Positions 2-17,143 of a stretch of DNA of 20,766 bases are shown in pieces. Origin of the DNA: Candidatus Thorarchaeota archaeon (GTDB taxonomy: Archaea; Asgardarchaeota; Thorarchaeia; Thorarchaeales; Thorarchaeaceae); the NCBI GenBank assembly GCA_038893995.1, contig JAWAQK010000040.1, positions 2,347 to 23,112 on the forward strand, given 5' to 3'. The stretch's first letter is position 1. Each line of letters opens with the position of its first letter. A program made the position numbers and the translations under genes. Under the pieces are notes generated by a model that worked only from the letters and a program-made list of their open reading frames with translations, was not told the DNA's origin and made no database searches.

Positions 2-2617
2 CTCTCGAACTCGGTGTCAACGAGCATCTCGGTCCTCGAGATTGTGAGTGGGGCCCTCTCGCTCTCCACCACGCAGATCCCGATCTCTGGCTCAGTGGTC
101 CTGTCGTACACACTCAATGCCAGCAATCCCTCCGGCGTACCGATCCGATTCGAGATACTCGACTACAACCTCCTCCCAGTCTGGAGCAGGATCGTGTTGA
201 CCGCCGAGAACGGGGTTGCAACGACGTCGTGCGTGGTCGACATGATTGCAGGTGTCCTTATTGTCCAGGCTACTCCACTGCCCGATGCCCTAGTTCTGGG
301 CGGAGGTTGTCAGTGTCAGTTGGTCGTGATGACAGAGTGTGTCCTGGACCTCTCGACCGTTCCATCTCCTGCGCTGAGGCACGAGGATGTCAATGTCTCG
401 TTGATCTGTCAGGACGAACTTGGCCTTCCAATCGCTCAGATCACGGTCATAGTGACCGTCATTGACCCCTATGGCAATACTGTGCGTCTTGGTCCAATAT
501 CGAACTCCATATCGGTGGTGGTCCGAAATGGCGCAGGTTCCTTCAAGTTCACTCCCGGCCTGACAGGTCTCTACAGAGTTTACATTCAGTCGTCGGGAGC
601 AGCATATGTGTATCCCTTCAACACTGACCGTTACCTCGTTGTATACACGCAAACAGTGTTGTCAGTAGAGAACTTCACCTCTCTACTGGTTACAGGAGAT
701 ACAGCATACAGCGCTGTGTCACTCCATACATCTGATGGGACTCCGATGACTGGCATGCCTATTGGGATAGTGGCGACTGGACCTGGCGGAACTGTTGTCG
801 GTCCCTTCTCGCTGGTGACCAACGACTCTGGAGTCATTCAGTGGTCATTTGTTCCGACACCCGAGGGTATTTGGACTGTCACATTTCGTTTCCTGGGCAT
901 GGGAGTCTACCTACCTTCCGATGCACAGGTCGTCATCTCAGTCTGTTACGGGACACGAATCTACCTGAACTACTCTCCGCAACAGGATATTGTTACGAGT
1001 CTGACTCCACTGGTGGTGTCGGTCCTTCTGACAGACTCCGGCGGCACACCCCTTGAGGGACGTACTATTACCTACTGTGTATACCATTCTGTTCTTGGAC
1101 TTGTGGACTCTGCAAGCTTCATTCAGCTCGGACCATCGCCTGAGACAATAGAGATCTATTTTGGACGCATGGGCAACTACACTGTGGTGTTCCTGTTCTC
1201 CGGTACCACTCACTACTTCCGTTCAAGTGCTGCAATCGACGTCTTTGTGAGGGGTCTCGTGAGCATACAGGTGGACCTTCCGCAGACTCTCGACCGATCT
1301 GAGCACCGTGAGGCCTCGCTGGTCCTCCTCGACGAAACAGGTCAACCTCTCGATCCACAGTTGCTTGAGGTCCAGCTGGTGCTACGAAGAGGTTCTCAGA
1401 TCATTCCCATCCATGACCGGCTCTCTGTGTCATCTCGATCGGTATCCCTAGATATGTTTGGGCTCGAGCCAGGCGATTACGAGCTATCAGTCTCAGTCAC
1501 TGGAACTCCTCTTCGCACGGGGGCTGCTCAGTCGTTCCCCTTCTCAGTGACTACCGTCTCACGTTTCCAGACGTCGGTGTTGGCATGCCCAGGACTGGTC
1601 GGGAACTCCCACAGGATAGTTTTCCTCCTGCTGGACTCCATCGACTCGAGACTGGACGGCATAGTCAGGGTCAGCCTGTTCGACCCACAGGGCCGCGAGA
1701 TACTCGGGAGTCCTCTGACTACAGTGACCGAGATCAACGTGGTCAATGGAACATTTGAGATATCGTGGATCCCACTCAGCATTGGATACTACAGACTTGT
1801 CATGGTGTATACTGGCCAGGACAGGATACAGTCATCTGAGATTGAGATGACGTTTCTCGCCCGCTACGAGAGCACACTGCAGGTGAGCAGTCCTGACAGG
1901 ATCAGATACATGGACCCTGCAAGGATGTACATACAACTGAGAGGAGGTACAGGAACAATCCCCAACGGCCCGCTCAAGATAGTCCTCAGGGTCGACGGGG
2001 TCCTGTTGGACATTATTGATGTCAGCGTCAACATGGCAGGCTCGTACCAGTTGGACCTCAAGGGATTGCCTGCGGGACTGCTCAATGTGACTGTCCTGTA
2101 CGAGGGATCGTCAGCGTATGCACCGTGTAGGTTGACTCGGTTCATCTGGGTCGAACCGATAGTTCAGGTCAGGGTCATTGGAGGACTCCAACATACGGTC
2201 AGGGCAAATGTGACGCTCAGTGTAGAGTCAGCTGTCCTCGGGGCGTCCTCGTCATGGTCTGGGACATTGTCTGTCCGGGTCACTGGCTCTGATGGTGAAC
2301 TCCTCTCCCGTGTCTGTACGATCGGCCCCACGCACACACTCGTGCTCTGGTTCGTCCCGATGGCGGAGGGAAACTATAGCCTAGAAGTCTGTCTGTCAGA
2401 TGTCCCGGTCTTGAACAGCTCCAGGTCCGCCTTCGTCATCACAGTGGTATCGCTCACAATCTACGAGCCCATGGTCGAGTCTGCCCCGTCGCTTGCTGGT
2501 GGAAGCCTCGCGCTAGCAGGAGTAGGTCTCCTCGTGAGGAAACGACTTCGTCTGTTGTTACGGTTCCTACCTGATGAATGGGTCGAGGAGGCAGCATCAC
2601 CGGGCACCAGTGTCTAG
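2..2617 (+). CDS. Large cell-surface/adhesin-like protein with tandem Ig-like beta-sandwich repeats and a C-terminal membrane anchor (5'-truncated by the window)
   Basis: Frame is open from position 2, so GTG at 14 is probably internal. V/S/T/G-rich ~100-aa units recur with motifs like LxDxxGxP (CQDELGLP, LTDSGGTP, LLDETGQP), DPxG (IDPYG, FDPQG) and GxYxxxxxxxGxxxYxxS (GIWTVTFRFLGMGVYLPS, GNYTVVFLFSGTTHYFRS). The hydrophobic tail SLAGGSLALAGVGLLV is followed by basic RKRLR. Confidence 0.8.
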   Translation, partial: LSNSVSTSISVLEIVSGALSLSTTQIPISGSVVLSYTLNASNPSGVPIRFEILDYNLLPVWSRIVLTAENGVATTSCVVDMIAGVLIVQATPLPDALVLGGGCQCQLVVMTECVLDLSTVPSPALRHEDVNVSLICQDELGLPIAQITVIVTVIDPYGNTVRLGPISNSISVVVRNGAGSFKFTPGLTGLYRVYIQSSGAAYVYPFNTDRYLVVYTQTVLSVENFTSLLVTGDTAYSAVSLHTSDGTPMTGMPIGIVATGPGGTVVGPFSLVTNDSGVIQWSFVPTPEGIWTVTFRFLGMGVYLPSDAQVVISVCYGTRIYLNYSPQQDIVTSLTPLVVSVLLTDSGGTPLEGRTITYCVYHSVLGLVDSASFIQLGPSPETIEIYFGRMGNYTVVFLFSGTTHYFRSSAAIDVFVRGLVSIQVDLPQTLDRSEHREASLVLLDETGQPLDPQLLEVQLVLRRGSQIIPIHDRLSVSSRSVSLDMFGLEPGDYELSVSVTGTPLRTGAAQSFPFSVTTVSRFQTSVLACPGLVGNSHRIVFLLLDSIDSRLDGIVRVSLFDPQGREILGSPLTTVTEINVVNGTFEISWIPLSIGYYRLVMVYTGQDRIQSSEIEMTFLARYESTLQVSSPDRIRYMDPARMYIQLRGGTGTIPNGPLKIVLRVDGVLLDIIDVSVNMAGSYQLDLKGLPAGLLNVTVLYEGSSAYAPCRLTRFIWVEPIVQVRVIGGLQHTVRANVTLSVESAVLGASSSWSGTLSVRVTGSDGELLSRVCTIGPTHTLVLWFVPMAEGNYSLEVCLSDVPVLNSSRSAFVITVVSLTIYEPMVESAPSLAGGSLALAGVGLLVRKRLRLLLRFLPDEWVEEAASPGTSV

Positions 2618-4408
2618 TCTACGGGTTGCCCATGGGTCTGTCCATCTGTGACTGTGGCGGTCGAACAGTCTGCTCAATGCAGAGGCCCTGTATGTCCTGT
2701 GTGTCCGGAGTGAACACGTGACGCACCTCATCTGCAGGGATCCTGCAACTTCCTCACATCTGCCACGCAGGACAAGTGCCTGACCCCGAGGGACGCGAAC
2801 GAGAGCTGCCATATCACCAGTCCTATCACTTGTGGAGAGCTCGATGTATGGTGACACTGCGACTAGCCACCGCTGAAACCTCAGACCGTCCGCGAGCGAG
2901 GAACTTGACGCCATGACGAATATTCCGTCCCATAGGCCCGTGTACTCGAGCCGGGGATGGTAGTTGACTGTCACTGCTCCTCCCCTTATCAACCGGTCTC
3001 TGGCAAGTGACCGACTTCTCCTGGGTACCACGAGCTCGCCAAGCAGACGTTCCCTCATGGCATGGGTACCGTCAAGACCCCACAGAAGTCCGAGCGTGTC
3101 GACGTCACGGGCCGAGAGTTTCAAGGGTGTATCGACTGACGGCTGGGCCAGACCTGTGTCGGTACCGCCCAGGACGTCTGAGGGCTCAGCAAGCCAGGGC
3201 TCTCTCCACTCTCCGCTCGTTGGATCAAACAGGTCCCACCTGAATGATTGGACGAGTGTGTGTGTCACTGTCTGGACGAAATCCTCCCTTGGCCAGCCTG
3301 AGGGCCCACCTGATGTGACCGGCTCCACGTATCCCAGTAGTCGCCTGAGTCGGGGGTTCCCCGTGTCAGCAGCCTCAAACAGACCTCTGGTGGGAGTTGG
3401 TGACTTGGTCCTCCTGAGCAAGATGTGTCTCATCTGAAGACCGAGACGGGGGAATACTGGGACGTAGGACTCGGTCATGACCCGTTCTATTATCTCTGAC
3501 ATCTTGGGGTCTGTCCCCAGCATGCTCCCAATTGCGGACCGAGTACACTTTCCCGGAACCGAAACAGAGGCGAGACCGACACATGCTCTCCTGATCTCGT
3601 CGTGGCGAAGTACATTGAATGACTCTAGAAGAATCTGGAGCAGTCGTCGGTGTTCATGTGCGACTGCCCCATCAGGCTGGGGATGCGTGCTGCTCCAGCA
3701 TGTTCCCACGTGACGAAGGCCTCCTATCACCTCCCCTACCTCCCTTCTGATTCGTGCCAACTCGCTCTCTCCAGACTCGGCCTTGCACATGGCAGTCTCA
3801 ATCTTGGCCTCAGGGTCGCTCGTCGGTATTCGTAGCAGCCAGTTCTGTATCCTGTTTCTGGGGAGCATGTCGAGGGGCGCAATCGCCGCGATCCTCTGCT
3901 GTGCTTTCCTCAATGCATCTATCACATCGCGGCACATGGCATCTGGCCTGAGCAGGGGTAGGACCTCAACGAGGGACTCTATTTTCTCCGACACTATCTC
4001 GTCTTGCCAGAGCGCCTTGAGCCAGGGCAGACTTTGGCCAAGTGCGGACGAGATGTGGTGAATATTCATCAGACAGCGTCCGAGTGTGTCGGTCTCATCG
4101 CTGAATGCTCTTGCAGTCTCATGTGCGTCTGTTGCACGTGCAACAGCCATAAGGACCCTGACAAGTGTCTCTCTCCGTCTGGCATCGATGGATTCCGGAA
4201 GCAACTCACTGATGGCTCTGTAGGGGTCACTCTCGGCGAGACCAGATAGGGCCCGACGGTCGGCAAGCCACGGGAGAGAGTCTACCTGAAGAGCGTTCAT
4301 CATATCGTCCAGATTCCTAGACTGACGCTGAGTCTCTAGTCTGCCCGAGACCCTCTGACTGGCCGTGCCTCTTGCACTGTCGTATCTGGCTTGGTTAAGC
4401 TGGATCAA
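2597..4408 (-). CDS. Hypothetical protein with helical N-terminal half and two C-terminal Lrp/AsnC-like (wHTH + alpha/beta) modules; apparent paralogue of 4604-6661
   Basis: 603-codon ORF. Lrp/AsnC-like linkers PVFPRLGL and HPRLEYTGL, wHTH-like RDRLIRGGAV, modules ending FDPTSGEW and FDRHSHRW. Start uncertain: TTG 4408, but the frame is open up to 4528. 3' end overlaps the convergent surface-protein gene by 21 bp. Confidence 0.7.
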   Translation of the reverse strand: MIQLNQARYDSARGTASQRVSGRLETQRQSRNLDDMMNALQVDSLPWLADRRALSGLAESDPYRAISELLPESIDARRRETLVRVLMAVARATDAHETARAFSDETDTLGRCLMNIHHISSALGQSLPWLKALWQDEIVSEKIESLVEVLPLLRPDAMCRDVIDALRKAQQRIAAIAPLDMLPRNRIQNWLLRIPTSDPEAKIETAMCKAESGESELARIRREVGEVIGGLRHVGTCWSSTHPQPDGAVAHEHRRLLQILLESFNVLRHDEIRRACVGLASVSVPGKCTRSAIGSMLGTDPKMSEIIERVMTESYVPVFPRLGLQMRHILLRRTKSPTPTRGLFEAADTGNPRLRRLLGYVEPVTSGGPSGWPREDFVQTVTHTLVQSFRWDLFDPTSGEWREPWLAEPSDVLGGTDTGLAQPSVDTPLKLSARDVDTLGLLWGLDGTHAMRERLLGELVVPRRSRSLARDRLIRGGAVTVNYHPRLEYTGLWDGIFVMASSSSLADGLRFQRWLVAVSPYIELSTSDRTGDMAALVRVPRGQALVLRGRCEEVAGSLQMRCVTCSLRTHRTYRASALSRLFDRHSHRWTDPWATRRLDTGAR

Positions 4409-4603
4409 CTCACGTACGAGTGTGTCGTCGGGTCTGAGTCGGCCGGTTGCGATACTGATGGACCTCAGGGTCCTGTACGATGCGTCTTTGTGAGCAGCAG
4501 GACTCGCGAACGTGGTTGCCTCCGCGATTCAGTGTGTAACCTGCTCGACAGGATGGCAAAAAGCATTGCGACATCGGACATCAGCCGCGGACCCAAGTTG
4601 CAG

Positions 4604-6661
4604 TCATGCGCACTCCTGCGTGAAGGTGATCTGGCTGAGCACCTCAGAGAGGTCGGTGTCCCATGTACAGTCCTTGCGGAGCAGTCTCTGGTACATCGTG
4701 CTGAGATAAGACCGTATATGGGTCACCTCCGAAACTTGAGCTTCAACACCAAGACATTCCGACTGTCTTCTCAGAGTCTCGTGCATGGCGAAGTACTGAA
4801 ACTGAGGGACCTTCATCGTGATGTAGGCATGGCGTCCCCCATCTCCCAGTAGCACATGCGCACGTGGAGTTCCCCTGAGCAGAGACATGCTCAGACCACA
4901 GACTGCACTCTCCTCTCCCCTCAGTTCAGCCAGTAGCGTGGGCATGTTACGCATTCTCACGCTCCTGAATGGTTTCACGATACCCCGCTCTGTGAGCCTA
5001 AGTATGGTGTTCTCGAGCCTCTTGACATCAATCTGGTACTCTCTAAGAAAGCTCGGATTCTCTAGCATATCGATGTAGAAGTTATTCGATGTCAGATCCA
5101 TGGCTCTGGCTTCTTCACGGTCTATCGGCTCGTTACCCGGAATCATTGGTCCTCCCGTCCTGGTTTGGAACTCGGACACAGAGAGTGGATCGACCGGTTC
5201 TTGGTCGTTGACGAATGGTGCAGTCCAAGATCTCGCAGCGACGTCGTAGGAGGACGGGTTCAGGGTCGCAGTTTCGTGGTCGACCCTCACAACGTTCCTG
5301 AGGTTCTCCTCCAGCACTGCCACCTGATTTCGCGGTACTGTCATCACTCTCAGGAAGTTGGTTCTTCCCCTGCTGTCTTTCAGCTCTATCCACTTCTCGA
5401 GATATCGATGCGGCCAGGTGTACGCGCGACCGGAGTAGACGATCTTCTCCAGCCCGATCCTCATGAAGTCAACGCGTGTGCGTATGTTATATCCGTTGAA
5501 TACAAGCGCGGCTCTGTCCATCATCAGCTCCCGACTAGTCGATGCCATTGCCCTCGTCACGGGGAACTCTAGCAGGCCCTTACCTATCGGTTGATCTGTG
5601 ATATACCGCAGGGACCTGGGGGTCCAGTCTGGTGCATTATCGATCAGGGTCTCAGTTGCGACGTACCATGGTTCGAGATAGGACGCAACGGCACTGCCAG
5701 GCAGGACGGTTGCATTTGCTCTCTCGGCGTCATTGATCACCCTGACGTACTGTGGGGGTGGTATGCCCTCCATCTCATACTTCATGTTGACACCCATGAG
5801 CGAACTGAGAACAGGTCTAGACGCCAACGAGAGGAATACATCCACAGGATCTAGATCGAGCTGTTGTCCGCGAACGAACAACGCGAGGAATTGCATGTAC
5901 TCTTCCCGTACCCGGGGCGGAAACGTGGCAGGCACAAGTGGCTCGAGCAGATCTCTCATGCTCGACACGTTCTTGGGCAACTCAATATCGTCCATCTGCC
6001 TGATGAGCGACCAGAAGCGAGTTCTGTCTTCGGGCGGAGGGCCATCAACGACAGTCTCAATGAACCGGACGATCATCGACCTGGCTGTTCGCGTGGCGAG
6101 ACTTCTCACTGCCGCATAGACCGTTGAATCATCCTTCAGGTACAGCGACGCAAGCTCATGTGGTTGTATCGGATGCGCGCAGACAGGGATGTACTCTCTG
6201 TCAACGACTGTCAGCCAGAAAGAGGAGCTCCCCACAATGGGATGGATGAAGTAACGGTGATTCCCTACACCTGGCATCAGTCTGTAGTACCAGCCGTGAG
6301 TCGGGGGAGGGTACATGCGTTCACCTATCGTGTACGGACCAGTCTTGAACGAGGCCAACCCGGTCAGGATGTGTCTGGCCTCTACCTCGGCCACGTCCTC
6401 GGTCGGTACGAACTGCTGGACGCCCGACTCATCAAGAATGAGGAGCCCATTTGGGACAAACCTAGTCGATGCACCAACCCCAATCAGACCTTTCACACCA
6501 TAGGCAAGATCGGCCCGCCTGATATCCCCTGAATCTATCATCTTCGTACTAGTGCAGTATGCCTTGACGGGGTCAGGCAACGGGGTACGCTCCGTATTCA
6601 AGTTCGCGCAACCTTCCAAATTAAGTGTGTGCAACACGTGGGAAAAACAGATGCCCGCCAC
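4604..6661 (-). CDS. Hypothetical protein with unknown N-terminal domain and two C-terminal Lrp/AsnC-like modules; apparent paralogue of 2597-4408
   Basis: 685-codon ORF. Linker VDFMRIGL, wHTH-like LENTILRLTERGIV, modules ending YDVAARSW and RLLRKDCTW. The real start may be TTG 6601 (GGAAGGT 9 nt upstream) or ATG 6541. Confidence 0.72.
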   Translation of the reverse strand: MAGICFSHVLHTLNLEGCANLNTERTPLPDPVKAYCTSTKMIDSGDIRRADLAYGVKGLIGVGASTRFVPNGLLILDESGVQQFVPTEDVAEVEARHILTGLASFKTGPYTIGERMYPPPTHGWYYRLMPGVGNHRYFIHPIVGSSSFWLTVVDREYIPVCAHPIQPHELASLYLKDDSTVYAAVRSLATRTARSMIVRFIETVVDGPPPEDRTRFWSLIRQMDDIELPKNVSSMRDLLEPLVPATFPPRVREEYMQFLALFVRGQQLDLDPVDVFLSLASRPVLSSLMGVNMKYEMEGIPPPQYVRVINDAERANATVLPGSAVASYLEPWYVATETLIDNAPDWTPRSLRYITDQPIGKGLLEFPVTRAMASTSRELMMDRAALVFNGYNIRTRVDFMRIGLEKIVYSGRAYTWPHRYLEKWIELKDSRGRTNFLRVMTVPRNQVAVLEENLRNVVRVDHETATLNPSSYDVAARSWTAPFVNDQEPVDPLSVSEFQTRTGGPMIPGNEPIDREEARAMDLTSNNFYIDMLENPSFLREYQIDVKRLENTILRLTERGIVKPFRSVRMRNMPTLLAELRGEESAVCGLSMSLLRGTPRAHVLLGDGGRHAYITMKVPQFQYFAMHETLRRQSECLGVEAQVSEVTHIRSYLSTMYQRLLRKDCTWDTDLSEVLSQITFTQECA

Positions 6662-6687
6662 ACGTGATCCTCAACATCGGTCACGTG
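6635..6687. promoter_or_regulatory. Cluster of three CACGTG palindromes including a 7-bp inverted repeat; candidate operator or attenuator
   Basis: CACGTG at 6635-6640, 6661-6666 and 6682-6687. CACGTGA-N13-TCACGTG spans 6661-6687. It lies between the micropeptide stop and the probable start of the 685-aa gene. Confidence 0.4.
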
Positions 6688-6750
6688 CAGCGGGCCCGGG
6701 AGAGGGAATCTAGTCCGGAGATATCTCGGCGGTCCTCTGCGGAAGCATCC

Positions 6751-6951
6751 TCAGAATGGCTGATCGGGGTCGATCGGCTCTGGGGGTGCCATGAACGGGT
6801 CATCCGGAATGGTCGGACTCAGTGGAGGCGCCGAGAATGGGTCATCCGGAATGGTCGGACTCAGTGGAGGCGCCGAGAATGGGTCATCCGGAATGGTCGG
6901 ACTCAGTGGAGGGAGCACAACCCTGTTCCAGATCCAGTCGTTGTCTTGCAT
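6751..6951 (-). CDS. 66-aa Pro/Asp-rich tandem-repeat micropeptide, (PPLSPTIPDDPF)x3 + PPEPIDPDQPF
   Basis: ATG preceded by SD-like AGGAGA (6966-6961). It is the only minus frame open across the repeat. The diverged 4th unit keeps A, P, P through synonymous changes (GCG>GCA, CCT>CCC, CCG>CCC) and ends exactly at the TGA. Co-oriented with the downstream genes. Confidence 0.65.
   Translation of the reverse strand: MQDNDWIWNRVVLPPLSPTIPDDPFSAPPLSPTIPDDPFSAPPLSPTIPDDPFMAPPEPIDPDQPF
6793..6912. repeat. 42-bp direct tandem repeat, ~2.9 near-identical copies, plus a diverged 39-bp copy at 6754-6792
   Basis: Unit GAAYGGGTCATCCGGAATGGTCGGACTCAGTGGAGGCGCCGA at 6793-6834, 6835-6876 and 6877-6912 (36 bp). 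One C/T difference at 6796; no spacers. Confidence 0.97.
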
Positions 6952-7311
6952 TTCTTCTTGTCTCCTGGAGCTCTGTCCAGCGAGACCTAGTACACTGCAA
7001 TGTCATTTCTCGGCCGATGAATTCAGTCTGTTATTGGAGCACAAAACACCAACTAGATGTCATCACTGGCGGATCTGACCCTATCTCTGACGAGCTGACT
7101 TTAATTGGTGAGAAGCGGAGCTAACAAGATTGCGTTACGAGTTGTCTTGGCTGATCTGGATTGCTGCGGTCGGCCTGTTGGACCCGGCTCAACTGCAGTT
7201 CAGGCTCCAGTCGTCCGGATCATCTTGATGTCTGAGGACCTCAGGGACCTGATCTGCGTTGGCAACCAACTGTCGAGAATCCTGAGTATTTGCGAGGGAG
7301 AATGGAGACCA

Positions 7312-7346
7312 TGGCCGGCCCATGTCCTGCGGGAGCATACCGGCCA
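7312..7346 (-). terminator. GC-rich stem-loop just downstream of the rubrerythrin stop; possible terminator or 3' stability element
   Basis: Minus strand reads TGGCCGG-TATG-C-TCC-CGCA-GGA-CATG-GG-CCGGCCA, 13 nt after the stop. There is no U-tract. Confidence 0.4.
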
Positions 7347-7359
7347 GGCTTAGACAGTC

Positions 7360-7953
7360 TCAGTATTCTGAGACGTGTATCATGAAATAGGACTTCGGAT
7401 GATCACAGGCTGGACACTTCTCAGGAGGCGATGTTCCTTCGTGGACGTAGCCACAGTTCATGCAGCGCCATCTTACCTTGTTCTCTCTAGCGAACACCCT
7501 GTTCTTGGCCACGTTCTCTGCAAGAGTCATGTATCTCTCATGATGCCATGTCTCTGACTTTGCCACGCTGCGCCACAGTGCTGCTATCTTCGGAAAGCCC
7601 TCCTTCTCGGCCACTTCGGCAAAGTGGGGATACATCTCACTGAACTCGTATTTCTCTCCAGCAGCGGCATGACGGAGGTTCTCCTCTGTCTTACCGAGCG
7701 AGCCGGTCGGGAAGGTCCACTTGACCTCCAATTCAGGTGCTGCTCCATAGTCTCTGAGCATAGTGAAGAAGCGCTTTGCATGTTCCTTCTCATGATCCGC
7801 CGTTTCGAGGAAGACCTGGGCTATCTGCATGTATCCCTCATCACGGGCGATACTGGCTGCGTAGGTATATCGATTTCGTGCCTGCGACTCTCCTGCAAAT
7901 GATGTCAGAAGGTTCTTCTCAGTCTCTGTTCCCTTGATACTCTTCTGCGTCAT
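7360..7953 (-). CDS. rbr: Rubrerythrin (diiron peroxidase with C-terminal rubredoxin-like domain)
   Basis: TEKNLLTSFAGESQARNRY, EKEH, GEKYE...MYP, ETWHHERY, and C-terminal CMNCGY...CPAC. Start ATG 7953 chosen (GGAG upstream); ATG 7962 is possible. Confidence 0.96.
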   Translation of the reverse strand: MTQKSIKGTETEKNLLTSFAGESQARNRYTYAASIARDEGYMQIAQVFLETADHEKEHAKRFFTMLRDYGAAPELEVKWTFPTGSLGKTEENLRHAAAGEKYEFSEMYPHFAEVAEKEGFPKIAALWRSVAKSETWHHERYMTLAENVAKNRVFARENKVRWRCMNCGYVHEGTSPPEKCPACDHPKSYFMIHVSEY

Positions 7954-8097: not shown

Positions 8098-8859
8098 CTA
8101 CATGGGGATTTTCGTCTTCATATAGACGTAGTCAAGCGCCTTGGATATGAGCGAAATGGTGACGACAAAGATTGCTGCCACGACCAGCCAGACCGGGAGT
8201 GAAACAAAGATTCTTGACATTATCCATGCTGCATTCTGAAACAGGTCGTTGACGGCAATGAAAGAGGCAACGACAGTGTACTTTGGCAAGTATGCGGCCT
8301 CGTTTGACCACGCCGGTATGACTCTTCTCAGTGACTGAGGAATCACGATAGACAATATGCTCTCGGTCCTTGTCATGCCTATTGATCTAGCCGCGAGTAA
8401 CTGCCCACTGCTCACTGAGGCCATAGCGCCTCTGAAGTACTCCGCCTGATACGCTGCACTGTTAAGTCCCATCGTGGCCATGGCTGAGAGTATCTGATGA
8501 TTGAGGATGATCACTCCTCCAACACTTACGCTCCAGCGTAGGTCTATCAGCGGCGACTCGGGAGAAGCGAATGTTGCATTGATGAAAGGAGCGAACAGAT
8601 AGATGACATATATCTGCACGAGCATCGGCGTGCCACGCATGAACTCGATGTAGCCAGTTGCGAGCGCTGATACGATAGTGCCTCCGTATTGCCGCGCCAC
8701 AGCAAGGAGCAACCCGAAGAAGAACCCGAAGACCAGCCCTGTGGCATACAGGTACATGGTCATTCCGTAGCCTTCCAGAATGAGCCCGTAGTAACCTGCT
8801 AGCCAGTCGAAAAAGAACTGCTGCGGAATGATGACCTGAGTCACATTGTTGATGGCCAC
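8098..8859 (-). CDS. Polar amino acid ABC transporter permease (HisM/GlnP family)
   Basis: YIEFMRGTPMLVQ, LNSAAYQAEYFRG, EAA loop GQLLAARSIGM, IVIPQSLR. GTG start with GGAGG SD. Confidence 0.95.
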   Translation of the reverse strand: MAINNVTQVIIPQQFFFDWLAGYYGLILEGYGMTMYLYATGLVFGFFFGLLLAVARQYGGTIVSALATGYIEFMRGTPMLVQIYVIYLFAPFINATFASPESPLIDLRWSVSVGGVIILNHQILSAMATMGLNSAAYQAEYFRGAMASVSSGQLLAARSIGMTRTESILSIVIPQSLRRVIPAWSNEAAYLPKYTVVASFIAVNDLFQNAAWIMSRIFVSLPVWLVVAAIFVVTISLISKALDYVYMKTKIPM

Positions 8860-8864
8860 GTCAA

Positions 8865-9638
8865 TCAGCCTCCCCTGTCCTTCTTGTTGGCGCCTCCGTA
8901 CAACACCTCAAGCTGGTGCAAGAATGCGCGAGCTCGTTCTGAGTCTGCTCCTGAGAAGAAATGCTCAGGGGTCCCGCGTTCGACAACCACTCCGTCGTCC
9001 ATGAATATCATCTCGTCTGCCACTGCCCTTGCGAATCCCAGCTCGTGCGTCACGACGACCATCGTTGTACCCTCCTTAGCCAGATCAAGCATGACCTGCA
9101 GGACCTCACCTATCAGCTCGGGATCCAGAGCGGATGTTGGTTCGTCGAACAGTATCACATCAGGTTCCATGGCGAGTGCTCGGGCTATGCTCACCCTCTG
9201 TTGTTGACCCCCGGAAAGTTCAGCCGGATAGTGGTGCGCCCTGTCGCTCATCTTCACACGGTCTAGTGCTCTGAATGCTCTGTCGTATGCGTCCTGCTTG
9301 CTGAGCTTCAGCACCTTGCGAGGTCCGATGGCGACATTGTCTATTGCCCTGAGATGCGCAAAGAGATTGAAGTGTTGAAACACAAAACCCATCTTGGACC
9401 GAACCCGGTCTATGTTGATGGACTTGTCGTTCAGCTTGATGTTTCTCAGGTACACTTCGCCCCGGTCTGGTGGGTCCAGCATGTTGATACACCGAAGTAG
9501 TGTACTCTTTCCCGATCCGCTGGGGCCAAATACTACTTTCACTTCCGACTCTGCAACGTCAAAAGACACTCCCTTGAGCACTTGAACATCTCCAAACGAC
9601 TTCCAAACATCTCTGACGCTTATGACAGTTTCAGGCAA
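8865..9638 (-). CDS. glnQ: Polar amino acid ABC transporter ATP-binding protein (GlnQ family)
   Basis: Walker [16 protein letters not shown], signature LSGGQQQR, Walker [15 protein letters not shown]-loop VVTHE. Start reassigned to TTG 9638 (GGAGGT upstream), which removes a 53-bp overlap. Confidence 0.95.
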
Positions 9639-9639
9639 G

Positions 9640-10317
9640 TCATTTACCTCCAAGTCCAATTCTTGCAAGCTTCCTGGTCTGTCGTTCACCAAGGTGATGT
9701 GTCACTGGATATGTCAGAACCAAGTAGACGAGTGCAACAACAACGTACGCTATGAACAGAAAGGCAGGCTCGTTGGCATAGTAGTTTCTTGCCAGTCTGA
9801 CCATGTCAGCGATTCCTATGGCTGATGCAAATGCAGCATCCTTTATCACCAGCGCATACTCGTTTGACCAAGCAGGTAGTGCTAGTCTCAGTGCTTGTGG
9901 AAGCACTACGTGCAGGAGCGCCTGCCGATTACTCATCCCGATGGACCTTGCAGCCATTATCTGTCCGGGATTGACAGAGAGGATCGCGCCTCGGATGATC
10001 TGTGACTGAAATGCTGCGCTGGCAATCCCCAGTGCCAATGATGCCGAGAAGAATGCACGTGCAATCTCGGGAAGAAAGGTGATTGTGTTGAGAAACCCAA
10101 AATAGAGTATGTAGATAATGACAAGTACCGGGATCCCCCTGACGAGTTTCTCATATCCCTCTGCAATGAATCCAAAGTCCTTTGAGTACACTCGCACTAT
10201 TGCAAGGAGAAGACCCAGTAGAAATCCAAACGATAGACCAAAGGCTGTCAGGAGCAGGGTGACCGGTATCCCTGCCATAACTGCCGATACTATGCCAAAG
10301 ATATCCGGTCCCTGCAT
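9640..10317 (-). CDS. Polar amino acid ABC transporter permease (HisM/GlnP family)
   Basis: [51 protein letters not shown], with multiple TM segments. Confidence 0.95.
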
Positions 10318-10328
10318 CTGACATTACC

Positions 10329-11117
10329 TCACACGAAGTACTTGTCGATCAGGCTAGTAATGGTGCCGTTCACGAGGAGCTTGTACAGTACCAGGTTGAT
10401 CGCACCGAGTAGATCTGTACCGTCGGGCCTCACGTAGGCGCACACGGGAGGTGCCTCTACAGCGAATATGGTCTTGATGCTGTAGACTTTCGAGTAGACC
10501 TTGAAGACTGGCTCGTCTATGTAGAGGGCGTCCAAGATTCCAGAGTCAAGATCCTGGAACATCAGGTCAGCCGCCGCATATCGTCGGATATCAATTGTGC
10601 CGCCCGCATCATTGATTTCTGTCAGTTCCTGATCCTCAACTGTGCCTGTCTGAACCCCCACTACCTTGCCGTTCAGGTCACTAAGTGCGCTTATGGTCAA
10701 TGTTGAGGCGTTCTTCACTACGACCACTTCGTCCATCGAGAGATATGGCATTGTGGCCGGAATTTGCCTGGTACGTTCGGGGTCCAGAAACAAGGCAGCT
10801 ATGATGACATCGACTGTGCCTCCCCTACAGGCACCAATCAGTGCACCGAAGTCCATGTCACGCCACTGGACTGTGAGTCCTAGCTGGTGCGCTACTCTCT
10901 CCATGAGTTCTATCTCAAAACCCTCGAACTTCTGAGAAGTGGAGTTGTAGATCTCAAATGGTGGATAGGGTGTGTTGGTACCAACCAGAATGTACCCTCT
11001 GGCTTGTATTGACTCCATTATCGCGGTGCTTCGAGGCCCTCCAAAGACCACAAAACCTGCCCCGAGACCGACGACAATTCCTATGACTAGGACCAATGCT
11101 GTTGCAGCCTTGTTCAT
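10329..11117 (-). CDS. Amino acid ABC transporter substrate-binding protein (SBP family 3), N-terminally membrane-anchored
   Basis: Hydrophobic N-terminal helix; VGTNTPYPPFE, GFEIEL, DLNGKVVGVQTGT. N-glycosylation sequons NST, NAS, NGT. GGAGG SD. Confidence 0.94.
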   Translation of the reverse strand: MNKAATALVLVIGIVVGLGAGFVVFGGPRSTAIMESIQARGYILVGTNTPYPPFEIYNSTSQKFEGFEIELMERVAHQLGLTVQWRDMDFGALIGACRGGTVDVIIAALFLDPERTRQIPATMPYLSMDEVVVVKNASTLTISALSDLNGKVVGVQTGTVEDQELTEINDAGGTIDIRRYAAADLMFQDLDSGILDALYIDEPVFKVYSKVYSIKTIFAVEAPPVCAYVRPDGTDLLGAINLVLYKLLVNGTITSLIDKYFV

Positions 11118-11486
11118 TCTGTCATCTCCTCCATATGCTTGAAAGGAGTAGTATGTGTACCTGCATAATGGGGAGATAAGTCATATGGTGTACTGATGTC
11201 ATCCTGAGCAGATCCTGGGAGGATCGATAGGATGCGGGGGGCCACGCAGAACGGTTCCGGTGGCAGAGTGTCATGCCTGGGGATAGTCTGACTCTCATTC
11301 AGGATGTCCGCAGGATTGCGCAGCAATCTGACATCACGTACGTGCTGCGTGCGTGGACATCTGCTGCAGTTGATAAGACGTAAGCGAGCAAGCGTTCTGT
11401 TCCTGGGCCGTGAAGGATCTGGATGTCCAATCTGGGCACGCCACCTCTGTATGGGTTTCCTTAGTCGATATGCTCGCACCCGTACC

Positions 11487-11492
11487 TTAATA
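11487..11492 (+). promoter_or_regulatory. Putative TATA box for the GGR-family gene (near-leaderless transcript)
   Basis: TTAATA 30 nt upstream of ATG 11523, with no SD before that ATG. Confidence 0.45.
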
Positions 11493-11522
11493 GGAACCCT
11501 GGACGACCACCGGTCCGCTCCT

Positions 11523-12722
11523 ATGTCCGTATACGACCTGGTCATCGTTGGTGCTGGGCCTGCTGGCAGCGCATGTGCCATGCACGCCGCGAGACGTGGC
11601 CTCAAGGTGTTACTGGTTGACAAGGCCAAGTTCCCCCGGTCCAAGTCATGTGGGGGTGCCCTCTCGAAGAGGACGTACCGTAATCTTGGTCCAAGAGCGA
11701 CCAGGGGCATCAACTGTCATGCCCATGGCTTGGTTGTATATTCCCCCAAGATGAGGATGGTAGACTATGAGGAGGATGACTGTGTCGACCTTGTGGTCAG
11801 AACGGAGTGGGACCATCACATGTTGCTGGATGCCATCGACGCGGGCTCCGAGTCTGCGGAGGGAACGATGGTCCAGTCGGTCTACATGGGGGAAGACTCG
11901 TTCAGCGTCATGTTGTCCGACGGCAACACTGTGAGTAGCAGGTACCTTGTACTGGCTGATGGTACAGGGCTCAGGTCCTACAAGAAGCTCCTGGGTTTTC
12001 ATCAGCCCTACGATCATATGGCAAGGACGGTCTGTGCTGAAGCGCCGGTCGAGGACAGCGTCATCGATGAGTTTCTTGGCACCAAGAGGAAACTACACAT
12101 TTTCTTCGGCGTAGTTCCTCGGGGGTATGGATGGCTCTTCCCGAAGAGAGGTTATCTCAATGTGGGTATCGGCTTCTCAAACACGACACCGCCATCGATG
12201 ACACAGTTCGAGGTCTTCGACATGTTCGTGAAACGTCTGAGGGACAGGAAGATGATTCCCCCCGACCTCGACCTGACATGTAGAACTGCACACCCTATCC
12301 CGTTCAGGAGACCCTTCCAACCTATTGGCATTGGGAGGGCACTTCTTGTGGGGGATGCCGGTGGATTCGTCTCTCCTGTCACGGGAGAGGGACTCTACTA
12401 CGGTACTTCCTCGGGCCGTCTGGCGGCGGAGGCGATTGCAGAGCATATGGATGGGAACTCTGCCAAGGACCTTGTTGCAGACTACACTTCTCGTTGGATG
12501 AGTGACTTTGGTGCTGACATGGTGGGGCCTGGTCTCTGGTTGGCCAATTTCCTATACAGGTCTCCCAGACGGATGGAGCTGATGGTCCGACTGATGAGTG
12601 CCGACGAGGAGACGCGAAGGACCGCTGCCCGAATGGTAATGGGTATCACCCGCTACGGCGAGGCACGCAGCGTCGTTCTGAGACGCTCACCATTGTCCCT
12701 TGCGAAGTCCTTGAGGAACTAG
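11523..12722 (+). CDS. Geranylgeranyl reductase-family FAD-dependent oxidoreductase (DGGGPL reductase-like)
   Basis: YDLVIVGAGPAG Rossmann motif, FPRSKSCGGA, GYGWLFP (YxWxFP), LLVGDAGGFVSPVTGEG. Start set at ATG 11523; the 73 upstream codons in the ORF track are not family-like. Confidence 0.92.
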   Translation: MSVYDLVIVGAGPAGSACAMHAARRGLKVLLVDKAKFPRSKSCGGALSKRTYRNLGPRATRGINCHAHGLVVYSPKMRMVDYEEDDCVDLVVRTEWDHHMLLDAIDAGSESAEGTMVQSVYMGEDSFSVMLSDGNTVSSRYLVLADGTGLRSYKKLLGFHQPYDHMARTVCAEAPVEDSVIDEFLGTKRKLHIFFGVVPRGYGWLFPKRGYLNVGIGFSNTTPPSMTQFEVFDMFVKRLRDRKMIPPDLDLTCRTAHPIPFRRPFQPIGIGRALLVGDAGGFVSPVTGEGLYYGTSSGRLAAEAIAEHMDGNSAKDLVADYTSRWMSDFGADMVGPGLWLANFLYRSPRRMELMVRLMSADEETRRTAARMVMGITRYGEARSVVLRRSPLSLAKSLRN

Positions 12723-13330
12723 TAGTCTACAAAGCCCGTGTCGATACTGCTGAAGAAATCGGGCCAGTTTCTCTTCACGAAGTCTAGCGGTAGTTCGCTG
12801 CTCATTATTAGGAGGGTCAACTCACAACAGTCATCTCCGACCGCTTTACACTTGGTCTCTCGGCAGATGACGTGATAGGCGCCCCCCATTGTCAGCGTGG
12901 CCCAGGTCTGGGCAGCCCCCTGGTAGGCCCCCGCCGGAAACCAACAGAATTTCATGGGGAATCTTATGTTTCTGGAGAACGGGCTATCGTCGTCCTGAAG
13001 TGTGTATACATAGACAGTCTGATTGTCCACTGTGCATTTCTCGTATGTCTGTTTAGTTGGAGTCCGACCTGCAAATATGATCCAGGCTGCTTCACCATAG
13101 GCAGGGACTCTCTCAAAGTCACCCTCCAGTTGTGCAGAGAGTTCCATCATGAACTCGTGTCCGAGGGCCATACCCCCCTCGAAGACGTGCTTCGGTCCAG
13201 CCTGTGGTCCAAGTAGCTCCACCGCGGTCTGCATCAGTAACTGATTGAGTTTTGTGGTCGTGAGTGTCAGACCCTTCTCACTCATCATCTTCTTCGCCTT
13301 GGAAGCCTGGACTATCAACCAGTTCTTCAT
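12719..13330 (-). CDS. V4R-domain protein (4-vinyl reductase/Bet3-like fold)
   Basis: FCWFPAGAYQGAA followed by RETKCKAVGDDCCEL matches the V4R C...ExxCxxxGxxxCEF pattern. Confidence 0.8.
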   Translation of the reverse strand: MKNWLIVQASKAKKMMSEKGLTLTTTKLNQLLMQTAVELLGPQAGPKHVFEGGMALGHEFMMELSAQLEGDFERVPAYGEAAWIIFAGRTPTKQTYEKCTVDNQTVYVYTLQDDDSPFSRNIRFPMKFCWFPAGAYQGAAQTWATLTMGGAYHVICRETKCKAVGDDCCELTLLIMSSELPLDFVKRNWPDFFSSIDTGFVDY

Positions 13331-13331
13331 T

Positions 13332-13790
13332 CTACTCGATCACCGCCTTTACTGAATCGAGCCTCCCAATCCTCACTAGCTGTTCGCACACAATCTTCAC
13401 TCGCATCTCAGGAATCCCCAAGATCTGAGCAAGTTCTTCGACACTTCGTCTCCCGTCTGCCAGCGCAACTACAGTGACCTGTGTATTGTCGAGATCGGAC
13501 ATGTTGACTAAGCCCTTCTTCGGAATTGGAACGTACCTCTTGGAGAGTGGCCTTCTGACGGCCTCGACCGTCTCGATCCGTTTGACTATGTCGCTTACGC
13601 TGATAGCTCTGACTCGAAACTCAGTGTCGACGAAGACTGTGACGGCATGCTCAGGTGTTCCGTGAGTGATCACGATTGGCACAGGGCTCCTGGGAGCCTG
13701 TTCAATCCTCGCCCTCTCTAGAGGCACATCTACGTTTGCCTTGCAGATTGGACACATGAACCTCAGTGGTACTGTACTCAACTTGAACAT
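13332..13790 (-). CDS. Small protein with N-terminal CPxC...H-x4-H putative Zn-binding domain and C-terminal winged HTH
   Basis: CPICK...ITHGTPEHAVTVFVDTEFRVR; C-terminal LADGRRSVEELAQILGIPEMRVKIVCEQLVRIGRL. 1-bp gap to the V4R gene. Confidence 0.8.
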   Translation of the reverse strand: MFKLSTVPLRFMCPICKANVDVPLERARIEQAPRSPVPIVITHGTPEHAVTVFVDTEFRVRAISVSDIVKRIETVEAVRRPLSKRYVPIPKKGLVNMSDLDNTQVTVVALADGRRSVEELAQILGIPEMRVKIVCEQLVRIGRLDSVKAVIE

Positions 13791-14097
13791 CGTCCCACGG
13801 GTCCTGGCGACATCCTGAGAATAGCGGCTCTAAAAGTGTATCTGGCGTAGTTCCGAGCGACCGAACCAATGCTCGCTGGAGGGCACATCACGCTCGAAGA
13901 CGGAGCGATCAACTGGTGACTCCTCTCATTGCTGTCCCTCCTCCCAGACCAGCATGCGGGACCCGGTCTGTTGATACTGGCGAGTTGGAAGGCGACATGA
14001 CAGCAGACACTGCTCCCGATCTGAGGTTGGCCGGGGCCCAAGTACTGCCTACACAGGGGCGTGAGACCAGCACGTGGCCGATGTTGGATGTTCTCCA

Positions 14098-17000
14098 TCA
14101 TGGGTCGAGAGCGGTCGATGTTGCTGCCTGTAGGGAAGAGTGGGTCTCTTCTAGTCTTCTCATCATTCCCTCAAAACTGTCGAACCAGTACTTCCTGTAT
14201 CCCGCGGGCAGCCTGTTCTCGTCGTCAGTGAACAGGAAGAGATGTACGCAGACGGTCAGATCCGCCCAGACAAATTCCCTCTTGCCACTCCCGTCCTCGA
14301 ATATGAGCCTGTATCCATCCACCTTGTATTCGTAGTCTGTGTGTCGTGTTCCCTTCGGGTCTACAAGCACTATGGTGTATCTGCTGCCCTTCCTCAACCA
14401 GAAGATAAAGTCTGGCCTGAACTTCTCTATCCTGTTGTTGGCTCTGTTGTAGTAGGGAACATAGACATCGTCCAAGTGCTCGTCTATCTTGCAGAACATC
14501 CACCAGTCGAATCGTCCTAGTGGGCCATCTCCTCTCCGAATGGCCTCCTCTACCTGCTCGAGGAACTTCCTCTCGCTCTCGACAGTGACTATGTGACTCA
14601 CGTATCTCTCCTTCTCCCTCTCCGAGAGGATCATGGGCAGATAGTAGTGGTTTGCGACATACTTTATCTTCAGAGTAGAGCCGTCCGCCACGAATACGTC
14701 CTCCCCACTCTCCCTGCTCAGTCTCTTGATCTCTGCTGTGTATTCGTCAATGCCTATTCTCCTCTGTTCCAACATTCGCTTCAGTTCTTCTTCTTTCTCA
14801 GACAGGTTTCTGTATTCCTGTACCTTGACTATCTTTTCCTGGAGCCTGCTCAGTTTTTCTGGCTCCAGAGTCACCCGTATTCTCTTGAAATGAACAATCT
14901 CGTCTGCGAGTCGCTGAAACCTGTCGAGCTCCTGCATAGTCACGTTCACATGCCTCATCAGTCTTGACACCTGCAGGAATAGGTCTCCGTCATCCGAGGG
15001 CAGGAAATTGCCATCTCGCAAGTACTCTCGCATCTTCCTCACGGTCTGCTGAGTCAACCGGTTCTCATGCGAGAATATGGCATGGATCAGTCTGTCGTCC
15101 CCTATCCAGTCAAAGAACCTGGTCAGGAGTTCTCTGTTGCCCTCGAACCTAGGAAGCTCGGAGGGTGGCATTACCCTGCCCACGTCCCTGTAGACTGGAA
15201 TCAGTAGCTCCCTCTCTCTGGCCCGCTCGTTCTCTCTGAGTTCAATGACCTCTCCTGATGCCTCTCTCTCATATCTTATGCTCTCCAGAATGTCCTGCAC
15301 GTTGTTCCTGCTCGTCCCGAGGACAAACAGGGTCTCCATCAATGACACATCGGTCTGGTCCAGTTTCGAGAGCATGTCTTTTGCGTCGGCGTCCCCCTCC
15401 CTTCTCAGTGGGAGGAGTCGTTTTCTCCTACCGCGTATCGGTTCTATTCTGACGCCCCTACCTATGGACTGGGTGACATACTTCCTTGCATCTCCCTTCC
15501 CTATGTTTATGAAGACCATCACGTTGGGCCTGTTTGAGTCCCAGCCCTCATAGAATGCCCTCGAGCCCATGAGAATACTCACACTGTCATTTCCGTGGCT
15601 TATCTCTCTAAACACACTCACGGTCTCATAGGCGTCGCTCATCTCGTAGCCAGTCAGCTTGTCCCTCAGCCAGGTACTGATGTCGCCTATCTTGATCAGT
15701 GCAAATGGCCTCTCAGATGTCTTAAGCTTGAATACGAGCTCCTCTGTATTCTGTGGAAGCCTGATCACCTCGATGTTCCCGAAAGAGCTCGCGTTGAACA
15801 CGTACTCCAATATCTCTCTGCTGCCGGCCTGCATGAGGCGTCGTGTGTCAATGGCAACGCGGCCTCCTCCGAACACGAATCTCGGTTGCCCCGAGAACTC
15901 GTCCACGAGCTCCTTTCTAGCCTCTTCGAGTAGGCTCCCGTCTGTTCTCCCGGTTGCAAATCTCTCGATCTCCCTGAAAAACAGCTCCAGGTCTGACTCC
16001 TCGATGTTGACAGAGTTCACCAGAGCAACGAGCAGGGGGCTGTGGTAGTGCGTTCTGCCCACCCTCTCGCTGACGTTATGTTTCGCCATCCTCAGTATGG
16101 TCAGCAGTAACAGGGACTTCAGGACGATCTTCTGCTTCTCCCTACTACTGAAGTCGGTCCGGTCTCCGAACGCAGTCAGTTCCTGCTGGGACAGGTAGAC
16201 ATTCTTTCCATAGCCCTCCCTGATGAAGGTGTCAAGGTTGAAGTTGTAGACAGTCGTCAAGATGTCCCAGGGGTCAGTGAAGGTGGCTGAGAAGTTGAAT
16301 AGGAAGCCGTTTCGCGTCATTATCGAGTAGAAGACCTGCCTCTTTGAATCCTCTTTGTCTCCCTTGTGTGCCTCGTCAAGAAGGACATACCATCTCCCGT
16401 CGTTCTCGACATCCTCGAAGCCAAGCAGCTTCTCCTTCGTCTCATCTGAGATCAGGTCGGATCGATACATGAAGACATGCACTGCATCAGGAAACAGCAG
16501 CGAGTTTGACGACTTCACCTCGTCATACCTGTCCAGCTCCCAGAGCATCACCGGCCTGGTTGCACCCCTGTTGAACTCCCTCACGTGATGCTCAATCTGT
16601 TCTATGAGGTCGTCTCTGTGCGTCAGAATGAGGATGTCATTGTAGGGTATGAGTCTGGCCTCTCTCAGCCTGTCCAGCAGTTCAACGAGTTTTATCAGTA
16701 CCATGGTCTTTCCAGAACCTGTCGCCATCCAGAAGCTCATCCTGTTGACGAAGTTCAGGAACTGTACTCTCTCCTGACCGCCACTCTGTAGGACTTGGTA
16801 GTACTGCCTGAGCCTATTGAACAGACGCCTATTCCTGCCACTCTGAATTCCCATCGAATCTACAAGATGTGGCTCAGATTTCCTCAACTCGTTGAAAAGT
16901 AGTCTCTTTCTCTCAATACTGTCCAGCTCGGTCTCTGTTTCTTTGTACCTCCTCAATGACCCATAGTAGTAATGAAGCAATTTCACCGCATTCACGAGGG

Positions 17001-17142: not shown

Positions 17143-17143
17143 C

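Follow-up and report, generated by a model that had tools for sequence, protein, structure and literature searches.

A candidate peptide-based module in Asgard archaea: a micropeptide gene linked to a tandem Lrp/AsnC-like protein

Asgard archaea are eukaryotes' closest known relatives among prokaryotes, and to our knowledge almost nothing is known of how they regulate their cell surface or communicate. We analyzed a 20,766-nucleotide stretch of DNA (the window) from a Candidatus Thorarchaeota archaeon (contig JAWAQK010000040.1 of assembly GCA_038893995.1; genome 2.33 Mb, 91% complete), the minus strand of which carries a run of three open reading frames (ORFs). The shortest encodes a 66-aa repeat peptide, here called the micropeptide, and the other two encode large proteins, A (685 aa as an ORF, likely 658 aa) and B (603 aa). 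The initial annotation had placed all three correctly and had recognized no named family for any of them, in line with our searches, in which the micropeptide, A, and B match no family in Pfam, NCBIfam, or PADLOC. The micropeptide gene belongs to a lineage-wide and almost never annotated type of micro-gene that is tied to the receptor-like protein A and to a giant surface-protein operon, a combination that points to an undescribed peptide-based regulatory or signaling module in Asgard archaea.

Gene layout of the locus

The features of the run and of the gene facing it are as follows, with the source of each assignment in parentheses.

6751..6951, minus strand: micropeptide gene, 66 aa (ORF list; family membership by position, head, and terminal motif)
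6961..6966, minus strand: Shine-Dalgarno-like AGGAGA, 10 nt ahead of the micropeptide ATG (sequence)
6793..6912, unstranded: 42-bp tandem repeat, 2.9 copies, coding for the repeated peptide units (Tandem Repeats Finder, 98% matches, score 233)
6643..6695, minus strand: terminator-like end of the peptide transcription unit, made up of a 17-bp hairpin at 6653-6695 and, after it, T5 at 6643-6647 (RNA fold)
6618..6624, minus strand: putative A/T-rich TATA-like element, ≈38 nt ahead of the likely A start (proposed from sequence only)
4604..6661, minus strand: ORF of A, 685 aa (ORF list)
5627..6580, minus strand: predicted family-specific N-terminal domain of A, first beta-rich and then helical, comprising residues 28-345 of the 685-aa ORF (AlphaFold2 model)
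4604..5626, minus strand: predicted C-terminal tandem Lrp/AsnC-like module of A, two units of winged helix-turn-helix (wHTH) plus RAM domain, NirDL-like (Foldseek, VIA)
2597..4408, minus strand: ORF of B, 603 aa (ORF list)
3602..4408, minus strand: predicted helical N-terminal region of B, residues 1-269, with a four-helix bundle at 135-234 (AlphaFold2 model)
2597..3601, minus strand: predicted C-terminal tandem Lrp/AsnC-like module of B, with a second wHTH that is basic family-wide (Foldseek, VIA, net charge)
2..2617, plus strand: giant Ig-like surface protein, C-terminal 871 aa with a C-terminal membrane anchor, running off the contig start (Pfam Big_3_5, Filamin, MG2)

A rubrerythrin gene lies upstream of the run, and downstream of it the gene for the Ig-like surface protein is convergent on B (both by Pfam). 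The start of A has to be moved from where the initial annotation had put it: because the GTG at 6661 that opens the 685-aa ORF sits inside the 17-bp hairpin, the TTG at 6580 is the likelier start, giving the 658-aa product present in the protein collection.

The micropeptide family and the spacer ahead of A

The window peptide begins with a 13-aa head; three 14-aa Pro-rich units follow, identical to one another and each with PDDPF at its end, and then a diverged fourth unit that ends in QPF at the stop codon. Scanning the DNA upstream of A homologues for short ORFs, with scan criteria of our own, we found a micro-ORF (ATG start, 12-90 codons, ending in Pro-Trp or less often Pro-Phe) in ≈34 of ≈48 distinct A loci. 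The loci come from related genomes and are not independent samples; the positive ones are spread over many genera. In nearly all of these, the micro-ORF lies on A's strand with its stop codon 55-200 nt upstream of A, and the C-terminal residues of the peptides are PEPW, PEPF, or closely similar ones. The genome behind the window holds 66 ATG ORFs of 12-100 aa ending in PW or PF (2.33 Mb, both strands, 4.65 Mb of strand), corresponding to ≈0.004 expected per 300-nt upstream stretch versus roughly 70% of A loci observed. The peptide therefore occurs far beyond chance, and the link between it and the first large protein that the initial annotation had suspected is recovered among the homologues of A.

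Among the closer pairs of micropeptide orthologues, the ratio of nonsynonymous to synonymous substitution rates (dN/dS) is 0.09-0.33 at a dS of ≈1, indicating that the reading frame is under purifying selection. Orthologous micro-ORFs carry GGTGA/GGTAA-like Shine-Dalgarno motifs 7-10 nt ahead of the ATG, and their products are Pro-rich and acidic, with strong conservation of the last four residues and the stop. No signal sequence or hydrophobic stretch is present in the micropeptides. Most of the micro-ORF products are absent from a 15-billion-protein collection, and a micropeptide profile gave four matches among 5.8 billion cluster representatives, none informatively named. On these sequence comparisons, the micropeptide clearly appears to be the product of a real, conserved micro-gene and to be under selection.

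The family takes three forms. The first, 36-40 aa long, has a conserved head and carries a Ser-Pro-Phe-acid motif internally and PxEPW at its end; the second, at 12-16 aa, comprises little beyond one Pro-rich unit ending in PEPW or PEPF; and the third consists of repeat peptides with two to five or more tandem 11-15 aa units. Repeat forms occur in at least eight lineages (the window, L010, L042, L043, L046, L062, L075, and L076), so the repeated cores seen at first in the window alone are a recurrent feature. The repeat sequences differ among lineages, and each core ends in a Pro-aromatic motif. The last unit closes exactly at the stop codon in 6 of the 8 repeat forms, and in L042 and L043 the terminal unit is partial yet still closes on a Pro-Trp motif. 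These patterns suggest that the functional unit of the micropeptide is short and aromatic-ended. In L076 (G171 C100), the 12-aa PEPF-ending repeat is broken by a run of N, leaving the copy number uncertain at at least five; the repeat may break assemblies there.

The window peptide has the head and unit architecture of the family and is of the Phe type, as are those of L046, L061, and L076. That its ORF is nevertheless a spurious frame over a noncoding minisatellite is very improbable. All six frames are indeed open across the 42-bp repeat, and the three units are near-identical in DNA and so hold little information on selection; but the position, strand, head, Pro-aromatic unit ends, and closing at the stop all match the family, as do the Shine-Dalgarno-like motif and the hairpin that follows, and Phe-type and repeat forms arise independently in L046, L061, and L076.

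The 75 nt after the peptide stop form a hairpin far more stable than shuffled sequences in 16 of 21 loci (z < -2, mean -3.2). Across orthologous loci, the main hairpin usually starts 15-28 nt past the micro-ORF stop and is usually followed by a T-rich stretch. In the window, the spacer that the initial annotation had called palindrome-rich is mainly one such terminator-like hairpin, which fails a strict scan for bacterial terminators and promoters that returned nothing over 6400-7400. As a candidate operator, CACGTG was rejected: it occurs 10 times in the window versus 5.9 expected, which is not an enrichment, and of its three clustered copies two belong to the stem of the hairpin.

After the hairpin, 20-45 nt ahead of the A start, an A/T-rich element is conserved in many orthologous loci, with a geometry that would suit an archaeal promoter driving A as a short-leader or leaderless transcript. 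The micropeptide and A look like separate transcription units. With a terminator-like hairpin of its own for the peptide and a promoter-like element of its own for A, the simple leader-plus-operon layout suggested by the initial annotation is unlikely.

The same spacer bears on a cis-acting leader peptide, which is the strongest rival of the reading we favor, namely that the peptide acts in trans on A. In such a leader, translation would pause at the Pro-rich motifs or at the PEPW-stop, and the pause would govern passage of transcription or translation through the hairpin and T-run into A, in the manner of the bacterial tnaC, mgtP/mgtL, and pheL leaders; what it senses would be the supply of Pro or Trp, the activity of aIF5A, or a small ligand. 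The position of the ORF on A's strand 55-200 nt upstream in nearly all positive loci, the stable and mostly T-rich-tailed hairpin in 16 of 21 loci, ORFs of down to 12 codons, Pro-rich sequences with a strongly conserved end and stop, and a neighborhood with no exporter, protease, or modifying enzyme would all suit it. We nonetheless consider it unlikely, if to be taken seriously, for several features fit it poorly: the promoter-like A/T-rich elements between hairpin and A accord with short-leader or leaderless A transcripts, the hairpin usually begins outside the footprint of a terminating ribosome, and tandem copies of whole units are atypical of arrest peptides. In two loci, moreover, the micro-ORF is on the other strand, just downstream of A and convergent with it in L046 and 3 kb from A in L055; it cannot act in cis there, and a purely cis role cannot explain these cases. 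We know of no established attenuation of the leader-peptide kind in archaea, and if the peptide did act in cis, the locus would be a rare candidate for such control.

Proteins A and B and their neighborhoods

The initial annotation had regarded A and B as paralogous. BLASTP finds no similarity between them, but hhalign of their alignments (12 orthologues each) does over the C-terminal ≈220 columns (probability 97.8, E 8e-13). The paralogy is thus confined to the C-terminal ≈220-330 aa, and the N-terminal domains are unrelated. We modeled both proteins with AlphaFold2, A from 31 orthologues (pLDDT 82.5, pTM 0.82) and B from 15 (pLDDT 79.0, pTM 0.77). The best Foldseek match in the PDB is for both the fused siroheme decarboxylase NirDL (4ch7; E 1.5e-5 for A and 6e-6 for B). 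With VIA-align, residues 345-680 of the A model superpose on NirDL (4czc_A) with a Z of 10.7 over 268 residues, and residues 270-600 of the B model with a Z of 11.9 over ≈270 residues, the whole NirDL chain; Lrp/AsnC regulators, among them 2dbb, 2e7w, 8q90, and 2cg4, align over their full length with the second module (residues 430-580 of B and 510-654 of A) with a Z of ≈6. In these models, each protein is predicted to consist of an N-terminal domain of its own and a ≈330-aa internal pseudo-dimer of two wHTH+RAM modules, for which reason an A/B heterodimer is possible and not required.

The Lrp-like character that the initial annotation had proposed, by analogy with AhbA/AhbB and NirDLGH, therefore stands at the level of the predicted fold, in which a wHTH is followed by a RAM domain (beta-alpha-beta-beta-alpha-beta), and does not extend to sequence. 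A and B show no match to HTH_AsnC-type, HTH_24, or AsnC_trans_reg at E ≤ 1 in Pfam, and none in NCBIfam. PF17805 (AsnC_trans_reg2) matches neither protein, and its best hit in the genome, at another locus, is below the cut-off (E 0.75); the same search was positive in control genomes. PDB sequence-profile searches with A and B gave matches at chance level only, a word-based homologue search with A retrieved only A itself, and ESM Atlas returned weak HTH_24/AsnC leads for the whole protein (scores 0.80-0.85) and nothing usable for the N-terminal domain of A. No set of conserved catalytic-looking residues is recognizable in the family alignments of A or B. The mean net charge of the second wHTH across the family is +5.0 in B and -1.7 in A, suggesting that if either protein binds DNA, B does.

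A profile of A has hits in 41 of the 43 genomes sampled from its own family, with one marginal hit in 157 genomes from 26 other families of the phylum. The N-terminal domain of A gave 120 profile hits among 1.84 billion representatives, nearly all of ≈650-700 aa or shorter pieces; judged by length, no outgroup stood out as visibly different. The N-terminal region of B has generic helical-bundle structural matches only. The top match of its four-helix bundle (residues 135-234; 3707-4006 (-) in the window) is the C-terminal domain of ESCRT-I Vps28 with a Z of 8.6, a likeness that probably reflects a common helical arrangement in the model. A ≈70-residue helical segment of this region is shared with a separate ≈250-aa family (B profile, E 1.8e-7), members of which occur in the window genome at C9 43348-44112 (+) (L081 2349-3113) and similarly in G010, G016, and G021; Pfam has nothing useful for them. 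At its C-terminus (2630-2638 (-) in the window), B carries Trp-x-Asp/Asn-Pro-Trp 1-10 residues from the end in nearly all orthologues, which may serve packing of the RAM domain or may be a tail motif related to the peptide end.

The initial annotation had taken the three genes as a fixed module, which does not describe the relatives. There the micropeptide gene and A are usually followed by two genes on the opposite strand, for a giant, membrane-anchored Ig-repeat surface protein of ≈2600 aa and for a polytopic membrane protein of ≈198 aa, and next by B, on the strand of A. The giant gene is convergent with A, with gaps of a few bases, and B is divergent from the membrane-protein gene. Both A and B are on one contig in 18 of the 20 relatives having both, and they are adjacent only in three fetched loci and the window. 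L039, L040, and L054 lack the giant gene and have A, the membrane-protein gene, and B side by side; in the window B directly follows A, and the giant gene is convergent on B. The window surface protein, the frame of which is open to the contig start, is the orthologue of the giant protein of the relatives (36% identity over 855 aa with L025 5456-13267).

The membrane-protein gene (L025 13270-13866 (-), with equivalents in most A loci) lies directly upstream of the giant gene, co-directional and with abutting ends, and is kept between A and B even in the three loci that lack the giant gene. Its 198-aa product has no match in Pfam, NCBIfam, or PADLOC. We did not find the gene in the window genome assembly, probably because the contig ends inside the giant gene. 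In two genomes, G002 and G024, A, B, and the giant gene are all absent, for which an assembly gap is as likely as loss.

Following its anchor and a basic stretch, the giant protein has a short cytoplasmic tail with a conserved Leu/Met-Pro-x-Glu-Trp motif, 2-3 residues from the C-terminus in most orthologues (L031, L033, L038, L041, L042, L044, L045, and L048-L053) and present in the window as LPDEW plus 11 residues (2567-2581 (+)). To judge by its placement, this is likely a docking motif for a cytoplasmic partner. We also considered that the peptide mimics this LPxEW tail, an idea to which we give only a low probability: the motifs are loosely alike and do not co-vary, and the window pairs a Phe-ended peptide with a Trp tail.

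Through these rearrangements, the micro-gene tracks A, and neither B nor the giant gene. It and A keep together in L032 and L034-L037, in which A has neither the giant gene nor B beside it, and in L039, L040, and L054, in which B is adjacent and the giant gene missing; in the genus with two A copies, the further copies have micro-ORFs of their own. This one genus has two A paralogues per genome (L059-L072 versus L038-L054); the first group has the 36-40-aa micropeptide form, and the second tends to minimal 12-15-aa micro-ORFs and a different conserved A/T-rich element ahead of A.

A linkage of mere neighborhood, in which A and B act elsewhere, as siroheme-decarboxylase-like enzymes or amino-acid-sensing regulators, and the micro-ORF is simply co-inherited, seems to us highly doubtful. 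The fold match to NirDL speaks for it, as do the A loci without a micro-ORF, and RAM domains of the Lrp/AsnC type normally bind free amino acids. It is hard to square, however, with a micro-ORF that follows A through rearrangements and accompanies its extra copies; nor do A and B match PF17805, which has no hit over its cut-off anywhere in the genome, and no genes of haem or haem d1 pathways are found in the neighborhoods of the window and its relatives.

The neighborhoods also bear on a processed, perhaps modified and exported precursor with several cores, resembling a ribosomally synthesized and post-translationally modified peptide (RiPP) or a pheromone, with A and/or B as recognition or tailoring proteins. 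The repeat forms would then be cut after the aromatic residue into several copies. We regard this as rather improbable. Tandem cores with a common Pro-aromatic end and differing repeat sequences in at least eight lineages are what it would lead one to expect; by fold, A and B stand nearest to a pair of enzymes joined into a single chain; a conserved small polytopic membrane protein to which no function is assigned lies nearby; and wHTH-type domains act as peptide recognition elements in RiPP pathways. Against this, none of the known families of RiPP enzymes, proteases, or transporters is found in A, B, or their neighbors; the minimal precursors, at 12-13 aa, are too short to include a leader; the peptides lack a signal sequence; no residue after the proposed cleavage site is conserved; and the alignments of A and B offer no recognizable catalytic-looking residues.

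In the genome behind the window, an intergenic 15-codon ORF ending in Pro-Leu-Pro-Phe (C57 12719-12766 (-), locus L080) is divergent from a gene for a 356-aa protein with an N-terminal HTH_24/AsnC-type HTH (13219-14289 (+)), which may be a second peptide/HTH pair or chance. The rest of the window, at 8098-11117 (-), 11304-12722 (+), 12719-13790 (-), and 14098-19645 (-), encodes a polar amino-acid ABC transporter with its two permeases, ATPase, and binding protein; a flavoprotein resembling geranylgeranyl reductase; a V4R protein accompanied by an HTH protein; and the two components of a Type III restriction-modification system, Res (1014 aa) and Mod (833 aa).

A proposed mechanism and known systems

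The unit that is duplicated in the repeat forms equals the minimal ORF in size, and this, along with the apparent terminator and promoter and the tracking of A by the micro-gene, leads us to think that the peptide acts in trans on A. In the mechanism we favor, the peptide would engage A, as a partner or ligand, by its Pro-aromatic end, the 12-16 aa forms being used whole and the repeat forms as several equivalent units. A would act together with B, its likely DNA-binding paralogue, which is usually transcribed divergently from the membrane-protein/giant-protein operon, and A and B would jointly set the expression or handling of the surface protein. The anatomy, conservation, fold, and synteny are shown, and it is from these that we propose the binding of the peptide to A, the binding of DNA by B, and the regulatory target. 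We hold the whole scheme tentatively, as somewhat short of an even chance.

Several observations weigh against this trans-acting scheme. The same-strand upstream position and the hairpin with its T-run would equally fit a cis-acting leader. The protein that A and B match best in fold, NirDL, is an enzyme, not a regulator. Approximately 30% of A loci have no detectable micro-ORF, including L030 and L031, the loci whose A is nearest to that of the window. In L074 and L075 the Trp is followed by two more residues, so a free Trp carboxylate is not universal. Finally, among the upstream regions of A and B in eight genomes, no common operator k-mer did better than shuffled sequences.

A bolder version of the same scheme is that the ≈12-residue Pro-rich peptides with their Pro-Trp or Pro-Phe end are dedicated ligands of A as a tandem Lrp/RAM-type receptor controlling the giant surface protein, perhaps in cell-cell communication among Asgard archaea, with the multi-unit precursors as dosage variants. 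We consider this unlikely as a whole; if true, A would be the first sensor of the Lrp/RAM class to read a ribosomal peptide instead of a free amino acid. The system bears on the question of whether ribosomal peptides serve as ligands of Lrp-type sensors in archaea.

Our literature search found no description of the micropeptide family, of the A and B proteins, or of a comparable Asgard system, and each known system that we compared shares some of its features. Like NirDL and AhbA-AhbB, A and B have in their C-terminal ≈330 aa two consecutive wHTH+RAM modules in one chain. They differ in being only 8-13% identical to these enzymes, with no PF17805 or other Pfam or NCBIfam match, in their extra 270-345-aa N-terminal domains, and in their linkage to a micropeptide gene and a giant surface-protein gene. 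With the Lrp/AsnC regulators they share the order of wHTH and RAM and, in B, a basic wHTH; unlike them, they have the module duplicated in one chain and fused to large unique N-terminal domains, match no sequence family, have an acidic second wHTH in A, and are found outside any context of amino-acid metabolism.

The attenuators tnaC, mgtP/mgtL, and pheL likewise have a short, Pro-rich, same-strand upstream ORF with a conserved end, followed by a hairpin and T-run. The present loci differ from them in the promoter-like element between hairpin and A, in a hairpin beyond the reach of a terminating ribosome in most loci, in the two loci with the ORF on the other strand, and in their archaeal lineage. 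Multi-core RiPP precursors of the cyanobactin and dikaritin types have tandem short cores with common end residues as well, whereas here there is no recognized tailoring enzyme, protease, or transporter, and single-unit ORFs of 12-13 aa have no leader.

In the RRNPP, Rgg-SHP, and ComRS systems of Firmicutes, as here, a very short ORF stands beside a gene for an HTH-bearing protein, and the conserved part of the peptide is C-terminal; some of their precursors carry several copies of the active unit. The differences are that the models of A and B are tandem wHTH+RAM with no tetratricopeptide repeat (TPR) family in Pfam, such that the TPR domain of RRNPP proteins is not found in them; that the micropeptides have no signal sequence or hydrophobic segment; that no exporter or processing protease was found; and that the lineage is archaeal. 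The micropeptide and A may represent a known layout, in which a short ribosomal peptide is paired with an HTH-bearing protein cognate to it, realized here in a new lineage and with parts that are all new, and may represent more than that if the peptide proves to be the ligand of A.

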